A stretch of 64,000 nucleotides of DNA from Chloroflexota bacterium (GCA_963662335.2 CAXXVD010000003.1:32001-96000); one strand, 5' to 3'. Shown: positions 1 to 16,103, counted from the first letter of the stretch. Numbers and translations are program-made. The notes: generated by a model from the sequence alone, not told the origin.

Positions 1-517
1 CGGCCTCTTCTCGCGCATGGTCACGCCGCTGCCCGACGGCACGGTGCGCCACGATCCCACCATAGACAGCGCTACCTACGCCCTCTGGTACTTCGGCATG
101 TTAGCCCCCGACGACCCGCTGGTGGTCAGGATGATGGAAACCGTGCGCGAACGCCTGTGGGTGAAAACCGACGTGGGCGGCCTGGCGCGCTACGAGAACG
201 ACTACTACCACCAGATAAGCAAGAACATCGCCGTGGTGCCCGGCAACCCCTGGTTCATCTGCACGCTCTGGCTGGCGGAGTGGTATGTCGCCAAGGCGAC
301 CACGCTCGACGACCTACAGCCGGCCAAGGAAATCCTGCATTGGGTCGAGCAGCGCCGCCTGGAGAGCGGCTGCCTCGCCGAGCAGGTGCACCCCTTCACC
401 AACGCGCCGCTCAGCGTCTCGCCGCTCACCTGGAGCCACGCGACCGTGGTGATGACGGTGAACGCCTACGTCGAGAAGTACAGTCTGCTCAAGCAAGGCG
501 AGAACGGCCAACCATAG
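1..517 (+). CDS. glycoside hydrolase family 15 (glucoamylase-like), C-terminal part; 5' end outside the window
   Basis: GGLARYENDYY, GNPWFICTLWLA and LAEQV...SPLTWSHA motifs. Confidence 0.85.
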   Translation, partial: GLFSRMVTPLPDGTVRHDPTIDSATYALWYFGMLAPDDPLVVRMMETVRERLWVKTDVGGLARYENDYYHQISKNIAVVPGNPWFICTLWLAEWYVAKATTLDDLQPAKEILHWVEQRRLESGCLAEQVHPFTNAPLSVSPLTWSHATVVMTVNAYVEKYSLLKQGENGQP

Positions 518-900
518 CTCTGTGGATAATTCTTCGGCATCCTGTGGATAAGCTAGCGGAATTGGGGAAAGCTACCATACCGTCAGTGGTTGAATACCTG
601 GAATGTCTGAGGATTCGCTGCGCAAAACTCGGGAGAACTCTCTGCCGCTCACTGGATAACTCCCCTCTATCGGTGGATACTCCCAGGGACAAAGCGTCGT
701 ATCTTCCCCACTTCCCACCATTCGTCGCGGTCATTACACTCATTCTCCACTCTTTCCTAACACAAACGCTTGCCTTTTCCCAAGAGATGCCCTAAGCGCG
801 ATTCCCCGCCACGACCAACTTCTACGTCGCTTTCCACACAATCCACAACGCCGACTAAGGCTGTGGCTGCATTCTTGTTTGATCTCTCTTCTTCCACTCA
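518..900. promoter_or_regulatory. DnaA-box cluster, candidate oriC
   Basis: Perfect TGTGGATAA at 521-529 and 543-551; degenerate boxes at 651 and 672; tandem reverse boxes CTTTCCACA-CAATCCACA at 830-847; lower GC; no credible ORF. Confidence 0.65.
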
Positions 901-1040
901 GTCCCAGGATGCGCCCTGCCCCTACTCACGCAAGCGCACAGCGGCTACAATGGGTACCGTGCAGCGCGGGTCTGCTGCGGGAACCATCGAACTATGAGAG
1001 GCAGCGGGCCGCCGCGGCAGCGAACACACGGAGCGTGTTC

Positions 1041-2165
1041 ATGGACGAATCAATCCGCTATACCAAGCAGAAATACGGCTGCCGGGTCGAGGCGCTGGCA
1101 GACGGCAAGCCCGTCTCAAGGCTGCGCATCGAGGATTATCAGATGCGGCTGGGAGACGCGTGGGTGCGGATGGCCGGCATAGCGGCCGTGGAGACGAACC
1201 CGGCGGAGCGCGGCAAAGGCTACGGCCGGCGGCTGTTGGAAGGGGTCGTGGCGTACATGCGGCGCGAGGGCTATCCGGTCTCGGTCCTGTTCGGCGTTCC
1301 CAATTTCTACCACCGCTTTGGCTACGCGACGGTCCTGGTGAGCAAGGGCGTGGTGCGGGTGAGGACGGAGGCGGCGGAATCGCTCCCTGGGCCTGAGGTG
1401 GCGGTGCGTGAGGCTGGGCCGGGGGACGCTGACGCGCTGCTGGCGATCTACCATGCCGAGCATGCGGCACGGAACGGGAAGATCCGCCGTAAGAAGTCGT
1501 CGTTCTTCCCGCATCTCGCGACTGATGCCGAGTGGTTTTTGGAAGCGCACCGCATTCTGCTGGCTGAAGAGAACGGGCAGCCGGTGGCATACGCGCTGGC
1601 GAACACGGAATGGCGGGAGGAGAACTCGGAGTGGCGGGTGTTCCTCCATGAGCTTGAAGCGCCGGCGGCGGTTGCGCATACCGCAGGCGTAAGCCTGATT
1701 CGCGCCCTGGGCGCGCACGCGGCGGCGCAACGCCAGGAATGGGTGTGCTTGGAGATGCTGCCGGACGCGCCGGTGCTGGACACGCTGCGTTCGGTCGGCT
1801 ATCGGCAGGAAGTCACGTACCGGCGCAATCAGGGAGGCATGGGGCGTATCATCGACCTCGCTGCCCTGGCGGATGCGCTGACAGAGACGCTGGCGAAGCG
1901 CAGCCAGGCGCTGGCCGGCGAAACACGGGTCGGCAGGATCGTGTTCAGGTGCGGCGACGAGGAGGCGGAGGTTGCGCTCGGCAGTGGACAGGCGCTCGAA
2001 ATCGCCCTGCCGCAGCACGCCCTGCTGCAACTGCTGCTGGGCTACCGCGGCATTGGGGAATTGCGTCTGGAGTACCCGGCGTGCATTGCGGAGCGGGACG
2101 CCGCTGCGGTGAACGCGCTCTTTCCCAGAGGCTATCCGTATACCTGGCTGATTGACCACTTCTAG
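1041..2165 (+). CDS. Eis-like GNAT acetyltransferase
   Basis: GIAAVETNPAERGKGYGRRLL and FYHRFGY motifs; GGAG before ATG 1041. Confidence 0.8.
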   Translation: MDESIRYTKQKYGCRVEALADGKPVSRLRIEDYQMRLGDAWVRMAGIAAVETNPAERGKGYGRRLLEGVVAYMRREGYPVSVLFGVPNFYHRFGYATVLVSKGVVRVRTEAAESLPGPEVAVREAGPGDADALLAIYHAEHAARNGKIRRKKSSFFPHLATDAEWFLEAHRILLAEENGQPVAYALANTEWREENSEWRVFLHELEAPAAVAHTAGVSLIRALGAHAAAQRQEWVCLEMLPDAPVLDTLRSVGYRQEVTYRRNQGGMGRIIDLAALADALTETLAKRSQALAGETRVGRIVFRCGDEEAEVALGSGQALEIALPQHALLQLLLGYRGIGELRLEYPACIAERDAAAVNALFPRGYPYTWLIDHF

Positions 2166-2204
2166 CTGTGGGCACATGCGCTGGCCCGTGTCCCTCCGCC
2201 GCCG

Positions 2205-2313
2205 GCAGGGGCACGATTTATCGTGCCCCTACCGGGAAACTGGGCGCCGCCGACGCGGGGCCCTGCCTCTAGTGGCATAGGCGCGCCTCGTAGCGCGGGG
2301 GCTTGTCCCCCGC
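2205..2313. repeat. two GTAG-type REP-like palindromes
   Basis: GGGGCACGATTTATCGTGCCCCTAC and GTAGCGCGGGGGCTTGTCCCCCGC (2290-2313); the latter recurs about 20 times in the window. Confidence 0.85.
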
Positions 2314-2365
2314 ATCTTGGCCCGTTTCCCGCAGGACACCTCTCGCATTGGCACATAGGACGCCG

Positions 2366-3109
2366 ATGGGCATCGCCGCCGTCATCTTCGACGTGGACGG
2401 CCTCATGGCCGATAGCGAGCCGCTGCACCGCGCCGCGTGGCGCGAACTCGGCCGCCGCCGCGGCTTTCCCACCTACGCCCGCGACGACGAGGAGAGCCTG
2501 GGCAAACGCGTGAGCGACAATTTCCGCCGCCATCACGCCCAGGGCCGGTTCCAAGAAGCGCCGGAAGTCCTGGTCGAGGAGTATCACGGTATTCTGATCG
2601 ACATGATGAAAGAGCGGCTGCGGCCAAAGCCCGGGCTGCGGGAGGCGCTGGAATTCGTGCACGCGCAGAACTGGCGCTGCGGCACGGCCTCTTCCGGCGA
2701 CCGGGTGTACATCGACGTGGCCCTCGACGTGCTGGGCATACGCGGCTATTTCCAGGCGGTGGCGACCGGCGATGAGGTCGCCGAAGGCAAACCCGATCCG
2801 GCGCTCTACCTGCTGGCGGCGGCGCGGCTGGGCATACCGCCCGCGGACTGTGTGGCCCTGGAAGACAGCCCGCGCGGCGTGCGGGCCGCGAAAGCGGCGG
2901 GCATGCGCTGTATCGCGGTGCCGGAGGGCGCGAAGCCGGTAGCCGAGGCCGACGCGGTCTGCGAATCGCTCGTGACGGCCATTGAAGTCATGCGGCGCTG
3001 GAGCGCCGGTTGCGTGTACAATTGCGGCAAGACAACGCGAAGCCGGCGCGGGCGCAAAGACCCGGCAGAGGACGAACAATCTCCCGCACAGCGCCCATGC
3101 GCTCATTAG
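2366..3109 (+). CDS. HAD-family phosphatase (CbbY/beta-PGM-like)
   Basis: FDVDGL, GKPDP and EDSPRG motifs. Confidence 0.9.
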   Translation: MGIAAVIFDVDGLMADSEPLHRAAWRELGRRRGFPTYARDDEESLGKRVSDNFRRHHAQGRFQEAPEVLVEEYHGILIDMMKERLRPKPGLREALEFVHAQNWRCGTASSGDRVYIDVALDVLGIRGYFQAVATGDEVAEGKPDPALYLLAAARLGIPPADCVALEDSPRGVRAAKAAGMRCIAVPEGAKPVAEADAVCESLVTAIEVMRRWSAGCVYNCGKTTRSRRGRKDPAEDEQSPAQRPCAH

Positions 3110-3123
3110 GTAAGGAAAAGAAA

Positions 3124-3918
3124 ATGGATAGAGCGGCAATGCCGGCGCAGCCCCGCGCCTTGCGGGAGTTGATACGCGCCGGCGAGTGGGACACGACGAC
3201 CGAGGGGCTGGCGCCGGGGTTCGTGCAGGCGAACCTGGCGATTGTGCCCAAAGACCTGGCGTTCGACTTCCTGCTCTTCTGCCAGCGCAATCCCCAGCCG
3301 TGCCCGGTGCTGGAGGTGCTGGAAGCAGGGTCGCACGAGCCGGCCGCAACGGCCCCCGGCGCGGACATTCGCACAGACGTGCCGCGCTACCGCATCTACG
3401 AGCACGGCGCGCTGGCCGACGAGGTGACCGACATCAGCGACCGCTGGCAGGACGACTTCGTCTCGTTTCTACTGGGGTGCAGTTTCAGCTTCGAATCCGC
3501 CATGCTTGCCGCCGGCATCCCCTTGAGGCACCTGCAGGAGGGCAACGACGTGCCGGTCTACGTCACGAGCCGGGATACCACGCCTGCGGGGGCCTTTGCA
3601 GGCCCGCTGGTGGTCAGCATGCGCCCGATACACCACACCCAGGTCGTGCGCGCGGTGCAGACCACCTCGCGCTTTCCGGGCGTGCACGGCGCGCCGGTGC
3701 ACGTCGGCGATCCGGCGGAAATCGGCATCACCGACCTGGATGAGCCCCAGTGGGGCGCGCGCACCGACGTGCGGAAAGGCGAGGTGCCGGTCTTCTGGGC
3801 GTGCGGCGTCACGCCCCAGGCGGTGGCGCTGGCCAGCAAACCGCCGCTCATGATCACCCACGCGGCGGGGCACATGTTCCTCACCGACCTGCAGGACGCG
3901 CATCTGGCGGTGCTCTAG
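3124..3918 (+). CDS. putative hydro-lyase / D-glutamate cyclase family (DUF1445)
   Basis: QANL, FCQRNPQPCP, LGCSFSFE, FWACGVTPQ and ITHAAGHM motifs. Confidence 0.9.
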   Translation: MDRAAMPAQPRALRELIRAGEWDTTTEGLAPGFVQANLAIVPKDLAFDFLLFCQRNPQPCPVLEVLEAGSHEPAATAPGADIRTDVPRYRIYEHGALADEVTDISDRWQDDFVSFLLGCSFSFESAMLAAGIPLRHLQEGNDVPVYVTSRDTTPAGAFAGPLVVSMRPIHHTQVVRAVQTTSRFPGVHGAPVHVGDPAEIGITDLDEPQWGARTDVRKGEVPVFWACGVTPQAVALASKPPLMITHAAGHMFLTDLQDAHLAVL

Positions 3919-12261: not shown

Positions 12262-12744
12262 CTATAACAGGCCGGGTTGTTGAACGCGCGGCGCGCACAC
12301 CGTGATGCCCAGGTGTTCTGAATAGTTCCACAATGACTTGTCATACGTATGAACTTCGGCTGCGCGCATGAGTTGCGCGGTAGCAAGGTGGATGCAGTCG
12401 CTTGGGTCTCTCTTGAGGTTATTGGTCAGGCCAATCCGCATCACGTCGCGAGCGCGTCTTGCAATGAGTTGGCTAAACTCGACGAGTAGCACGACACGAT
12501 CGTCCTGGAAGATTGTATCTATTCTGCTTAATTCAGCATCATTGAGGGCTCGGTCTAGTCGCTCTTGCTCCGTAAAGGCGACCTCTGCAATAGAGAGTGT
12601 TGAGGTGACGATCTTTTGTTCTCCGTCGCTCCGTTCCACCTCACTAAGAATGCCTTGCAAAGTGCCGATTCGCTCAGACGACTCGTTGATGTAATAGGTG
12701 AAGCAGTTTGCGTCCCAATAAATGAATTCTGCAGAAGCCGGCAT
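12262..12744 (-). CDS. PIN-domain (VapC-like) ribonuclease toxin
   Basis: YWDANCF, STLSIAEV, DCIHLATA and TYD acidic motifs. Confidence 0.85.
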   Translation of the reverse strand: MPASAEFIYWDANCFTYYINESSERIGTLQGILSEVERSDGEQKIVTSTLSIAEVAFTEQERLDRALNDAELSRIDTIFQDDRVVLLVEFSQLIARRARDVMRIGLTNNLKRDPSDCIHLATAQLMRAAEVHTYDKSLWNYSEHLGITVCAPRVQQPGLL

Positions 12745-12752
12745 CGTTCTTC

Positions 12753-13475
12753 CTACTTGCTTTTGACAATCCGCAGAGCGCCACGCGCTGCGCGGTAAGA
12801 ACCTAGGGAAGCAGGAGGCACCTCATGGATTTCGCGGATATTCCTGATTTGAGTGGGGATGCCAGTCTTCGCGTCGCGTCGTATCAGTCCCTCGACGATG
12901 ACGCGCTTTCGCCAAAGTTGCCTTGCGCGGTCTTCGATTTCTGGCGACAGGAGGCAAGAGACGGGCGCATCGAAGAGGTTGTCGTAAAGAGTGAAGCGCA
13001 GTGACTTGCGATCAGAGAGTGTCCGTATTCGCCCCTCAATTGCTCCAAACACATCAACAGACTCTAGCCTTTCGGGTCGATCAGGCGGTTGCCGGACGAT
13101 ATGCTGCGCTCTTGGCGTTCTAAAGTGAATGGCTGTAATCTCTCCATTGACTAAGGATGCAATGGAATCCGCGTGTCGACGGATATCATCGGAGTACGGT
13201 ATCTCAGAGCGATCCGCTAACGCTTGGCCGACAATGCCATAAGCGGTCATTATTGACGGCACATCCTTCGGGTCATCCGCAGTTCCCCGAATCGTCGTAA
13301 TTGCGCTTGACGCCGATAGCTCTAAGACTTTCCATTGGACCGTAGCGGAACTGCCGGTAATCTCTGAGCTGAGAGATTTCAGCAGTTCATTTAGTTCACT
13401 GACGGCCGTGGAAAAGTCAGAGATTCGCACTTCACCATCTAGACCTAATGTGATGACGTCGTCCTGTTTAGACAT
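12753..13475 (-). CDS. hypothetical protein directly upstream of the PIN toxin
   Basis: 240-aa ORF with GAGG RBS; 8-bp gap to PIN; beta-rich C-terminus. Confidence 0.7.
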   Translation of the reverse strand: MSKQDDVITLGLDGEVRISDFSTAVSELNELLKSLSSEITGSSATVQWKVLELSASSAITTIRGTADDPKDVPSIMTAYGIVGQALADRSEIPYSDDIRRHADSIASLVNGEITAIHFRTPRAQHIVRQPPDRPERLESVDVFGAIEGRIRTLSDRKSLRFTLYDNLFDAPVSCLLSPEIEDRARQLWRKRVIVEGLIRRDAKTGIPTQIRNIREIHEVPPASLGSYRAARGALRIVKSK

Positions 13476-13520
13476 CTCACACCTCTCGGTGTCAAATTGC
13501 ATAGGCGAGACTACTTGCCT

Positions 13521-14102: not shown

Positions 14103-14289
14103 GGTCTATCCTTGCTCCAGCGTCAAACTCGCGTTCCCCCTCGCAAGTGTACCACAGTCGTTCGCTCTAAACCAGAAAGTCAATGCGCAGACAAGACTGG
14201 TTATGTCGTGCTGCCAGCGCGCGCTAAAGTGGGAGTGGGACACTTATGTATGAGAGTCGCCTGGTGTCACTTCGGCTTCGCAATCGGCT

Positions 14290-14706
14290 CGAGGTCTAGC
14301 GAAACTGCCTGTCATGGGAGCGGCTGAGCATGGCGGCAAGGTGAAAGCGGTACCATTCCTGTAGGTGATGGCGCGGCATATCAATACTTTCTTGAAGCGC
14401 AACGTGGATCCGCGCGCCATCCTCATGACCGACTACTGGCCGGGCTACAACGAAGTCAGAGACTGGATGCAGCGCTTTCGCGTGAATCACGGCACAGGCG
14501 GATTCGTTGACGGGGAAGTCCACACCAACACCACTGAGGGATTCTGGTCATTGGTGAAGCGCGCGGTTGCCGGCCAGCACCACCACTACACGGTCGAACA
14601 CGCGGCTATCTACATCCACGAAGCGGCTTACAGGTGAAAGACCCGCAAGTCGGACAGGCTGTTCAAGGACTTCATGCTGCGGGCTAGGGGACTACATATT
14701 GCGTAA
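14290..14706 (+). pseudogene. IS1595-family (ISXO2-like DDE) transposase remnant
   Basis: KLPVMGAAEHGGKV, MTDYWPGY, VNH and HTNTTEGFWSLVKR; in-frame stops at 14362 and 14635; N-terminus missing. Confidence 0.85.
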
Positions 14707-14741
14707 AAGCGGAGCGTCTACCGCAACATAGGCTTATGTCA

Positions 14742-14770
14742 TTGACTCGATGCATTCGCTTCTGTAGAAT
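14742..14770 (+). promoter_or_regulatory. sigma70-type promoter of the tRNA-like RNA
   Basis: TTGACT-N17-TAGAAT, followed by a hairpin at 14785-14824. Confidence 0.7.
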
Positions 14771-14828
14771 CTTGGGAGATAGGCGAACCCGCCTGTTCCT
14801 CGGTCAAAAGAAGCAGGCGGGTTCTGCT

Positions 14829-14926
14829 GGAAGGTATTGTCTGTCAGTACAGAACCAGCGCTAGGAACGCTCGGAGCGTCAGGGATATGTCCTGTCGTTG
14901 CGGTGCAACTCCGCTACCTTCCGCCA
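14829..14926 (+). tRNA. non-canonical 8/4 tRNA-Sec-like (allo-tRNA-type) RNA, anticodon AGG
   Basis: 8-bp acceptor GGAAGGTA/TACCTTCC then G-CCA; D stem TCTGT/ACAGA with 4-nt loop; anticodon stem AGCG/CGCT with loop CT-AGG-AA; long variable arm 14875-14899; 4-bp T stem GCGG/CCGC with loop TGCAACT. Confidence 0.75.
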
Positions 14927-14987
14927 CTTTCCGCAACCGCAAGTGTATACAGTGTAAACCGTGCTGACTCCATGCGTCAAATCGCCG

Positions 14988-15251
14988 CTATTCTGCCGGC
15001 GAATCAGTCTTTTCGCCTACGATTAGCAAGCTAGGCCGCCTGCCGCGAAAGCCAAACGTGATGCAGGTGAAGAGGAAATTGAAGAACTTCCTGGCGAGCG
15101 ACCACTTGTCCTCAGTGATGAAGACCAAGCGGTACCCGTCTTCATTGAGTCGTCTAATAGCGCGGTCTACGGCGCGCCCCTGGCTTTCACCGATATTGAG
15201 CCAGCCGCTCTTGAGTTCGACGCGCTCAGTGCGGTTGATTGGGTCGCTCAT
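14988..15251 (-). CDS. small hypothetical protein (87 aa) with a hydrophobic segment
   Basis: AAGGAGG RBS; FFNFLFTCITFGF stretch. Confidence 0.7.
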   Translation of the reverse strand: MSDPINRTERVELKSGWLNIGESQGRAVDRAIRRLNEDGYRLVFITEDKWSLARKFFNFLFTCITFGFRGRRPSLLIVGEKTDSPAE

Positions 15252-15392
15252 GGGTGCCTCCTTGCAGCACGCTAAAGGGTAGGTCTTGCTACAGCCCGAC
15301 GCCTAGAGTGGGCCGCAAGGAGACGTGGCAAACCACTATCCCCTTAGCGTCTCTTGTGAGACCCACAACTAGACCTATTCGGGCTGTAGCAC
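15252..15392 (-). ncRNA. structured 5' leader / C4-like antisense RNA candidate
   Basis: 13-bp perfect outer stem 15287-15299/15379-15391 plus inner stems; bulge and loop complementary to sequence just upstream of the RBS. Confidence 0.55.
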
Positions 15393-15397
15393 GTAGC

Positions 15398-15426
15398 ATC
15401 CTACCAAGCGCACAGAATCAAGGCAA
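15398..15426 (-). promoter_or_regulatory. sigma70-type promoter for the structured leader and 87-aa gene
   Basis: TTGCCT-N17-TAGGAT with TGn extension; predicted start at the hairpin base. Confidence 0.55.
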
Positions 15427-15430
15427 GTCG

Positions 15431-15685
15431 ATTTCCTATAATCCTCGACGCACCCTAGAACGAATCTTTACACGGCCCACGCCACCCGACATCAGGTGGG
15501 CCAATATTGAGAGCATGTTGGGTGCAGTAGGTGTGGAGGTCTCAGAGCGGGCGGGCTCGCGGGTGCTCTTGAAGAAGGGAGCGGAGCGTATCGTCGTTCA
15601 CAGACCGCATCCTCGTCCAGAGGCCGGCAAAGCTACGGTCCGCAATATCGCCCTGTTTCTCCGGGAGATAGGAGTAGTGCCATGA
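15431..15685 (+). pseudogene. hicA: HicA-family toxin, apparently lacking its native start
   Basis: RRTLERIF...IRW...GSRV...HRPHP; no ATG or RBS at the expected position. Confidence 0.65.
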
Positions 15686-16017
15686 TGGAGTATAGGGGTT
15701 ACCTAGCCACCGTCGAATACGATGACTCGGTGGGACTTCTGCACGGACAGGTCGTCAACGCCGGTCCCTATCCGATTGCCACGTTCGAGGCCGCCGACGT
15801 GGAGGGGCTGAAACGCGAATTCCGCATATCGATCGAAGAGTACTTAGCCTCGTGCGCGGAAGACGGGATCGAGCCGCGCAAACCGTTCTCCGGCAAGCTC
15901 ACGCTGCGGCTAGGAACCGAACTGCATCAGCGCGTGGCGGCCGCGGCGCTGCACAGCGGGCTGAGCATCAACGAGTGGATCAAGCAGGTGCTCGCGGAGA
16001 ACGCGCAGAGCGGGTAG
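15682..16017 (+). CDS. hicB: HicB-family antitoxin
   Basis: MEYRGY...YL..C...P.KPFSGKLTLRL..ELH; ATGA overlap with hicA. Confidence 0.9.
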   Translation: MMEYRGYLATVEYDDSVGLLHGQVVNAGPYPIATFEAADVEGLKREFRISIEEYLASCAEDGIEPRKPFSGKLTLRLGTELHQRVAAAALHSGLSINEWIKQVLAENAQSG

Positions 16018-16103
16018 AAGCGCGGGCATGTTTGCGGATGCGGCCGCTCCGCACGTGAATCGGAGGAGCGGCCTGCGGTTCGGAAATCCCTGCGCGGGGC
16101 GCG

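Follow-up and report, generated by a model that had tools for sequence, protein, structure and literature searches.

In phage P1, processing yields c4 as a small, discrete trans-acting RNA of 77 nt, and its two-site pairing and its processing were reportedly described by Citron and Schuster in 1990 and 1992. The type I toxin mRNAs (hok, tisB, zorO, aapA1) are translationally inert and have a long 5′ leader with an anti-Shine-Dalgarno (anti-SD) sequence. IS1595-family elements with passenger genes, the ISNwi1 and ISNha5 groups, are said to be covered by Siguier et al. in 2009 and by ISfinder. P1 c4 is reported to act in trans and to repress the synthesis of Ant (PMC8546580). For the 5′ UTR of IS200 tnpA, two papers describe an SD-sequestering stem-loop, the antisense RNA art200 and small RNAs derived from the UTR (PMC4513863, PMC5435999).

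The locus considered here lies in a 64,000-nucleotide stretch of Chloroflexota DNA (GCA_963662335.2 CAXXVD010000003.1:32001-96000; the window), in which a structured leader on the minus strand precedes a gene for an 87-aa protein. A first-pass annotation had taken the leader for a C4/CI-like antisense switch. The likeness to P1/P7 c4 and P4 CI lies in the arrangement: the putative regulator shares strand and transcript with its target and precedes it, two of its sites pair with two adjacent downstream sites over the ribosome-binding site, and the sites covary with their targets. The assignment to these families was not borne out. The Infernal search against Rfam (C4, CI-like) that the annotation had proposed gave no match at gathering score (cmscan, whole window) and nothing in the leader at E values up to 10 (14300-16100), and there is no phage context. 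Thus, by the Rfam models, the leader has no similarity to c4 or CI in sequence or structure. Its core of ~104 nt forms three stacked helices, whereas c4 is a 77-nt processed RNA, and a generic anti-SD serves as one of its two sites. The leader is found in an IS1595-family element with variable cargo and a convergent transposase gene, not in a phage immunity operon. The leader plausibly acts like C4/CI but outside those families; the mechanistic idea of the annotation was largely right in kind and wrong in the family assignment.

Like IS200 tnpA, the locus belongs to an insertion sequence (IS) with a structured 5′ leader, which here would probably hide an SD sequence. In IS200 it is the transposase mRNA that is controlled, by a simple local stem-loop and an RNA from the opposite strand, whereas the leader described here precedes the cargo genes, at the end of the element away from the transposase gene, and has two long-range pairings. 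The intact elements resemble the ISNwi1 and ISNha5 groups in that their transposase has DDE_Tnp_IS1595 and zinc-ribbon domains, their ends are terminal inverted repeats, the target duplication is 8 bp long, and genes other than that of the transposase lie within them. Some of the cargo proteins are small membrane proteins (DUF4234, Imm_superinfect), as in type I toxin systems, but the leader also precedes genes for secreted proteins of 200-360 aa and for a PH-domain protein, and the 87-aa protein of the window does not look membrane-like. In the literature available, no structured cargo leader and no repeat-embedded cargo promoter was found for IS1595, an absence of little weight given how thinly these sources cover the IS literature.

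Layout and fold of the leader in the window

The features of the leader are as follows.

15398..15426, minus strand: promoter-like site, TTGCCT (15426-15421), 17 nt, TAGGAT (15403-15398); position kept family-wide
15288..15391, minus strand: leader RNA core, ~104 nt, three stacked helices P1, P1b and P2
15390-15379 with 15299-15288, minus strand: helix P1, from fold and covariation
15375-15369 with 15306-15301, minus strand: helix P1b, from fold and covariation
15366-15362 with 15312-15308, minus strand: helix P2, from fold and covariation
15361-15350, minus strand: apical hairpin P2a, from the fold, without covariation support
15336-15325, minus strand: apical hairpin P3, from the fold
15329..15351, minus strand: site a, apical segment complementary to the linker; core ACGCUAAGGGG (15350-15340)
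15313..15324, minus strand: site b, anti-SD GUCUCCUUGCGG, immediately 5′ of the P2 3′ strand; pairs with the SD block
15266..15287, minus strand: linker (site a′), 22 nt from P1 to the SD; core CCCUUUAGCGU (15279-15269)
15256..15267, minus strand: site b′ CUGCAAGGAGGC, including the SD sequence AAGGAGG (15263-15257)

The promoter TTGCCT-N17-TAGGAT and the hairpin of ~105 nt (15391-15287) with its perfect 13-bp outer stem are present on the minus strand as the first-pass annotation had described them. The start of transcription predicted from the promoter-like site coincides with the base of P1. The promoter of the window copy scores 8/12, which is under the threshold of the consensus scan, and its support was therefore taken from positional conservation. 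The 157-nt RNA of the minus strand has a minimum free energy (MFE) of -69.7 kcal/mol (z -3.82; 1/200 shuffles equally stable), while the opposite (plus) strand folds more weakly (z -1.77).

All three complementarities that had been proposed between the hairpin and the sequence downstream of it occur in the sequence, but they differ in conservation. Those of ACGCUAAGGGG with CCCUUUAGCGU and of GUCUCCUUGCGG with CUGCAAGGAGGC are kept in the family; that of UAGGUCU (15377-15371) with AGACCUA (15286-15280) is not. UAGGUCU, described as a bulge region, is the 5′ strand of the covarying helix P1b, and its pairing with AGACCUA beat shuffled sequences in just 2/27 copies, so it was rejected as a long-range pairing. 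ACGCUAAGGGG had been placed in a loop. In the MFE fold of the window copy it pairs with the anti-SD, so there is no loop at that place. Site a and the linker of the window copy form a duplex of -22.9 kcal/mol by RNAduplex (z -4.0). Site b′ can also form a small local hairpin in the fold.

Copies and distribution of the RNA family

By covariance model, 35 distinct copies of the leader were collected, nearly all from one genus of one Chloroflexota class; the relatives are named in the genome collection as Chloroflexota metagenome-assembled genomes. Of 61 related genomes searched by blastn, 8 contained copies, with several in each. The window's own genome has a second copy, 74% identical by blastn, and the gene behind it is a different one, for a secreted protein of 311 aa. 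A covariance model built from 11 copies (R1) gave 32 matches in 12 of the 17 genomes of the genus, with at most 7 per genome. Across the class, R1 matched 14/98 genomes, with just three weak matches outside the genus. A second model built from 27 copies (R2) matched 8/151 genomes across the phylum, all of the same class, and gave two extra weak matches in the window's genome (G000:C3:451986-452116 and G000:C1:369811-369971, both on the plus strand; E 2e-5 and 3.5e-5). The latter two keep the anti-SD/SD pair, a quick scan found no clear open reading frame (ORF) downstream of them, and they are probably decayed copies.

In metagenome contigs, the exact pattern of anti-SD, gap and SD was found in no stretch. 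A looser pattern gave 95 matches, of which 80 were fetched; none of these fitted R2 (0/80), and the loose matches were dropped as chance. On sequence comparison, the leader is a conserved and previously undescribed RNA family with strong comparative support.

One locus in genome G011 (L032) has two leaders back to back, at 1501-1645 (minus strand) and 1737-1883 (plus strand), ~90 nt apart. They precede divergent genes, and there is no transposase gene within ~5 kb on either side. This pair may represent domesticated IS ends.

Covariation of the helices and the anti-SD:SD pairing

Structure statistics were obtained from 35 distinct copies aligned to R2. Standard pairs make up 93.4% of 1147 cells as against 76.8% in shuffles, and in 27 of the 34 pairs both sides have changed, a number matched by none of 500 shuffles and by no slid control; the relatedness of the copies makes the shuffle test overstate significance, but this caveat affects neither the slid controls (40-47% paired) nor the variety of pair types found per position. 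Compensatory changes occur in every pair of the stack (P1 12/12, P1b 4/4, P2 6/6; 22/22 in all).

The first-pass annotation had also pointed to an anti-SD in the 3′ arm that matches the SD sequence. This pairing proved to be a property of the family: 96.5% of its cells are paired and 4/10 pairs have compensatory changes. UA is replaced by CG at two positions (in 9 and 7 sequences), and further exchanges occur at two more. In one copy (L030), a U is missing from the anti-SD and an A from the SD, which is a matched 1-nt deletion, and distant copies have the variants CCCC:GGGG, UUCCC:GGGAG and UUGUG:CACAA. Many G-U pairs suit the minus strand alone, e.g. U-G in 26/35 copies at one anti-SD position. 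Other local helices fared differently. P2a is 72.6% paired without covariation support, and an alternative helix of GAGAC with the anti-SD is 82% paired with zero double changes and no better than shuffles; both were dropped as supported helices. The local SD hairpin is 94.7% paired, with merely two single compensatory cells, which lends it weak support.

The second long-range pairing

The apical and linker sequences are too variable to be aligned, and each copy was therefore analysed alone by RNAduplex. The apical region pairs with its own linker with a median of -20.9 kcal/mol (median z about -3.5), and the pairing was significant (p<=0.05 against shuffled linkers) in 25-26 of 27 copies in two runs. 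Four control pairs of leader regions were significant in 1-5/27 copies, and the J segment alone, a subset of the apical region, paired significantly with the linker in 20/27. The cognate linker outscored every dissimilar linker in 23/27 copies. Site a varies between lineages while site b is constant, and apart from the anti-SD the sequence of the apical region is poorly conserved.

The duplex of site a with site a′ spans nearly the entire linker and exceeds the 11 nt proposed earlier. Its apical strand begins in the 3′ strand of P2a, crosses a single-stranded junction and ends in the 5′ strand of P3. The linker is 20-26 nt long in 27 copies, with a median of 23, and the P1-P2 stack has a median of 23 bp. 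The comparison of homologues, which the first-pass annotation had suggested as a check, thus showed that the stacked helices, the anti-SD:SD pairing and the pairing of site a with the linker are all maintained across 27-35 copies.

Insertion sequence context

The first-pass annotation lacked the IS context, and with it the fact that the same leader stands ahead of many unrelated cargo genes. Judged from its surroundings in several genomes, the leader is the inward-facing left end of IS1595-family insertion sequences. The best example is an element of ~1.6 kb present in three copies in genome G002 (100% and 92% identical over about 1606 bp). It has 29-nt terminal inverted repeats (86%), and the copy is flanked by an 8-bp direct repeat, GGAGAATC; a target duplication of 8 bp is typical of the IS1595 family. 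The transposase of 287-303 aa is encoded on the strand opposite to the leader and has the domains DDE_Tnp_IS1595 (5.1e-33) and Zn_ribbon_IS1595 (4.9e-8). The -35 box of the leader promoter, TTGACT, sits within the left repeat. The right repeat contains the same box, which there serves the transposase gene; the leader of that gene is short and plain. A strong hairpin lies between the cargo and the transposase gene of this element.

The left repeat (IRL) reads GGGAATTATAAGAAACAGACTTGACT in G002 and GGGAATTAGTAG... in genomes G004, G006 and G008, and matching right repeats (IRR) were found in these genomes. The elements with GGGAATTAGTAG... ends in other genomes measure ~1.96, 2.46 and 3.2 kb. 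The ~3.2-kb element, in G004 (L062, about 84-3302 in leader orientation), has several cargo ORFs, one of which encodes a shorter relative of the 87-aa protein (motifs LNDEGYRLV ... VLVIGE), and adjoins a sequence that resembles a tRNA gene, as judged by eye.

Of the 25 distinct leaders examined, 13 have a convergent IS1595 transposase gene beyond the cargo, and the other 12/25 have no transposase gene within ~5 kb, so the link to the IS is frequent but not universal. Among the 35 promoters, 23 score at least 8/12 (shuffled mean 6.1), and the -10 box lies exactly 7 nt ahead of P1 in most copies. In all intact copies, the leader ends precisely at the SD sequence and start codon. The cargo that follows varies: a 51-aa DUF4234 membrane protein, a 122-aa bPH_1 protein, an 80-aa Imm_superinfect protein, DUF4352 proteins, secreted proteins of 213-320 aa that belong to no family, and the 87-aa family. 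A possible complementarity of the leader to the transposase mRNA exceeded shuffles in 0/9 elements, with a crude choice of start codons, and targeting of this mRNA by the leader was dropped.

The window copy and its neighbourhood

The window copy is a decayed IS1595-family element in which the leader and the 87-aa gene are intact. Its remaining parts are the following.

15421..15446, minus strand: left terminal inverted repeat, degenerate, GAGGATTATAGGAAATCGACTTGCCT; aligns with the IRL of intact relatives and holds the -35 box
14988..15251, minus strand: 87-aa cargo gene, ATG 15251-15249; conserved small protein of no assigned family
14239..14694, plus strand: convergent IS1595 transposase pseudogene; residues about 151-302 left, with three in-frame stops

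No right terminal repeat was found in the window. The transposase pseudogene was recognized by tblastn (52% identity) and by Pfam (DDE_Tnp_IS1595, 2e-18), and is 58% identical to the intact transposase of G002. The second leader copy in the window's genome is likewise followed by a transposase fragment only.

The 87-aa gene is in the sequence as annotated (ORF 14988-15251, ATG 15251-15249). Its product has eight database homologues with 55-81% identity and a remoter homologue (36%) encoded behind another leader. Of the 17 genomes in the genus, 3 have a gene of this family; in every case a leader and an IS1595 transposase gene stand next to it, and in one case it is the second cargo gene. A search of genome contigs for members of the family gave three loci: one with a leader before a two-gene cargo, one without a leader, and one weak match. 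The suggestion that the product is a toxic membrane protein found no support, since the hydrophobic run comprises only about 12 residues between charged (basic) residues and varies among homologues, the low-confidence AF2 model is of alpha/beta type (beta-alpha-beta-alpha-beta; pLDDT 63.7, too low for a fold search), and the protein has no match in Pfam or NCBIfam. Atlas gave a weak lead to DUF4177 (score 0.83, rank 11).

The tRNA-like RNA on which the gene was thought to converge was not recovered. ARAGORN detected no tRNA and no tmRNA in the whole window, and the single trace is a plus-strand Rfam match to Tymo_tRNA-like (14836-14939), which with 21.5 bits (E 0.1) stays below the gathering score of 40. 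This segment lies between the convergent 87-aa gene and transposase remnant and shows no conservation at the DNA level with the G002 element. In the same interval, ~160 nt past the stop codon of the 87-aa gene, an 11-bp GC-rich inverted repeat, GAACCCGCCTG ... CAGGCGGGTTC (14786-14826, both strands), has no clear run of T and is comparable to the strong hairpin of the G002 element; it may be a bidirectional terminator or an RNA-end structure.

A hicA-hicB pair (15239-16017, plus strand) stands back to back with the leader, in which the HicA domain spans about 15497-15685 and hicB occupies 15682-16017 on the plus strand. The HicA-like frame runs into the left end of the IS at about 15446, and there is no obvious start codon between this end and the domain, so that the insertion may have removed the start of the toxin gene. 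The IS end has an outward-facing TATAAT (15434-15439, plus strand). Farther away, a PIN-domain gene (12262-12744) directly follows a 249-aa gene of no family (12753-13502; the pair at 12262-13502, minus strand). Together with the IS remnant, hicAB and the PIN gene pair form an accessory-gene island.

Proposed mechanism

The pairings of site a with a′ and of site b with b′ both cross the P1-P2 stack and one another. Nested folds in which either pairing is forced in place of P1-P2 are costlier by a median of 11.6 and 16.2 kcal/mol, respectively, and were rejected as equilibrium states; the pairings would thus form on top of the stack as pseudoknots, or between molecules. The linker is about as long as the stack, so the a:a′ helix could run along the stack and bring the SD to the anti-SD beside P2; ViennaRNA is unable to model these crossing pairings, and their coexistence in cis is argued from the lengths alone. 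A crude sum of the energies of the stack, a:a′ and b:b′ lies below the nested MFE in 23/27 copies, by a median of -9 kcal/mol with the pseudoknot penalty excluded, and the anti-SD helix itself has a median of -21.6 kcal/mol. The usual pseudoknot penalty is ~7-10 kcal/mol. With this penalty, the paired and unpaired states would, by this rough estimate, be about equal in energy, as a switch needs, which makes a two-state switch plausible.

We consider that the leader is probably the 5′ leader of the IS cargo mRNA and acts as an intramolecular, two-site antisense element that occludes the ribosome-binding site and is possibly bistable. The structure, its covariation, the two pairings, the fixed placement between promoter and start codon and the IS context are features of the family itself; transcription, repression, the switch and its trigger are what we infer from them. 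Transcription would start at the base of the ~104-nt domain, from the promoter with its -35 box in the left terminal repeat. Once both pairings had formed, the translation-initiation region would lie folded against the stack, and no protein would be made from the cargo gene. If P2a, P3 and an internal partner held sites a and b instead, the ribosome-binding site would be free. The proposed internal partners of this 'on' state lack covariation, and P2a and the GAGAC:anti-SD helix are weak. The leader would thus be a repressor that keeps expression of the cargo low or conditional. Of the two-state translational switch that the first-pass annotation had proposed, the pairing of two internal sites up to the SD stood, the pairing of the bulge did not, and bistability is plausible from the crude energies.

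Alternative explanations

Several observations would also suit a C4-like action in trans, in which the ~105-nt domain is released and binds, through sites a and b, the linker and SD of other transcripts from its lineage, so that cargo expression drops as the copy number rises and site a provides lineage specificity. Sites a and b and their partners a′ and b′ follow in the same order, as for a separate target; the steric problem of a pseudoknot in cis does not arise; the element is multi-copy, with up to 7 per genome; and the combination of a lineage-variable site a, a constant site b and a cognate pair that is best in 23/27 copies would serve such recognition. P1 c4 is itself presented as a trans-acting repressor of Ant synthesis (PMC8546580). 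However, pairing in cis is kinetically favoured with both partners on one molecule, drift and compensation in a cis element yield the same covariation, and the window's genome has just two good copies, the a sites of which differ. We therefore regard action in trans as rather unlikely. A more far-reaching proposal, that the leader is a lineage-specific, self-encoded antisense regulator silencing the cargo of all copies of its lineage, in cis and, after release, in trans, is in our opinion speculative to the same degree. No greater chance is given to the form that this proposal would take, a bistable RNA in which the variable site a encodes specificity and the invariant anti-SD exerts the effect.

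Other readings leave the sites in one molecule or take away their regulatory role. A stacked stem with an apical multiloop and an anti-SD is an architecture that a sensor could have, with the domain as a riboswitch aptamer or RNA thermometer and a:a′ and b:b′ as its expression platform. SD-sequestering pseudoknots, which occur in riboswitches such as SAM-II and preQ1-II, provide a precedent, and the two states are roughly isoenergetic. The cargo genes have no common function (DUF4234, bPH_1, Imm_superinfect, DUF4352 and unknowns), though, and the apical sequence outside the anti-SD is poorly conserved, hence there is no apparent ligand pocket; the anti-SD helix is long and strong, unlike that of typical thermometers, and no Rfam family matches the leader, so a sensor is unlikely. 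Since the predicted 5′ end of the RNA is the base of a 12-13-bp stem, the layout of known 5′ stabilisers such as the ompA and ermC leaders, the hairpin might do nothing more than stabilise or insulate the mRNA, the long-range complementarities having no regulatory role. To this explanation we attach little credence, because it accounts neither for the compensatory changes in anti-SD:SD and a:a′ nor for the constant length of the linker. The position of the feature directly inside the left terminal repeat could finally point to a signal at the DNA level, a subterminal transposase-binding site or hairpin, but the right end has no counterpart, the repeat there passing at once into the short transposase leader; the frequent G-U pairs are functional on one strand only; and all intact copies stop precisely at the SD and start codon. 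That the conserved feature is DNA rather than RNA is hardly credible on these grounds. The intramolecular two-site antisense leader remains the reading that we prefer.

Significance

An IS is usually viewed as a transposase gene between two repeats, and the known RNA controls of IS act on the transposase. Here, a conserved cassette of promoter and leader at one IS1595-type end precedes interchangeable cargo genes and apparently brings its own means of hiding the ribosome-binding site. The family of 35 copies is an addition for a phylum with few described regulatory RNAs. Should the lineage-wide silencing be true, it would represent an undescribed RNA-based 'immunity' or dosage control for the passenger genes of IS. 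If the repression proposed for the intramolecular leader is true, the family would show how a transposon carries cargo at low cost, and would provide a compact and portable two-site RNA switch with natural specificity variants.
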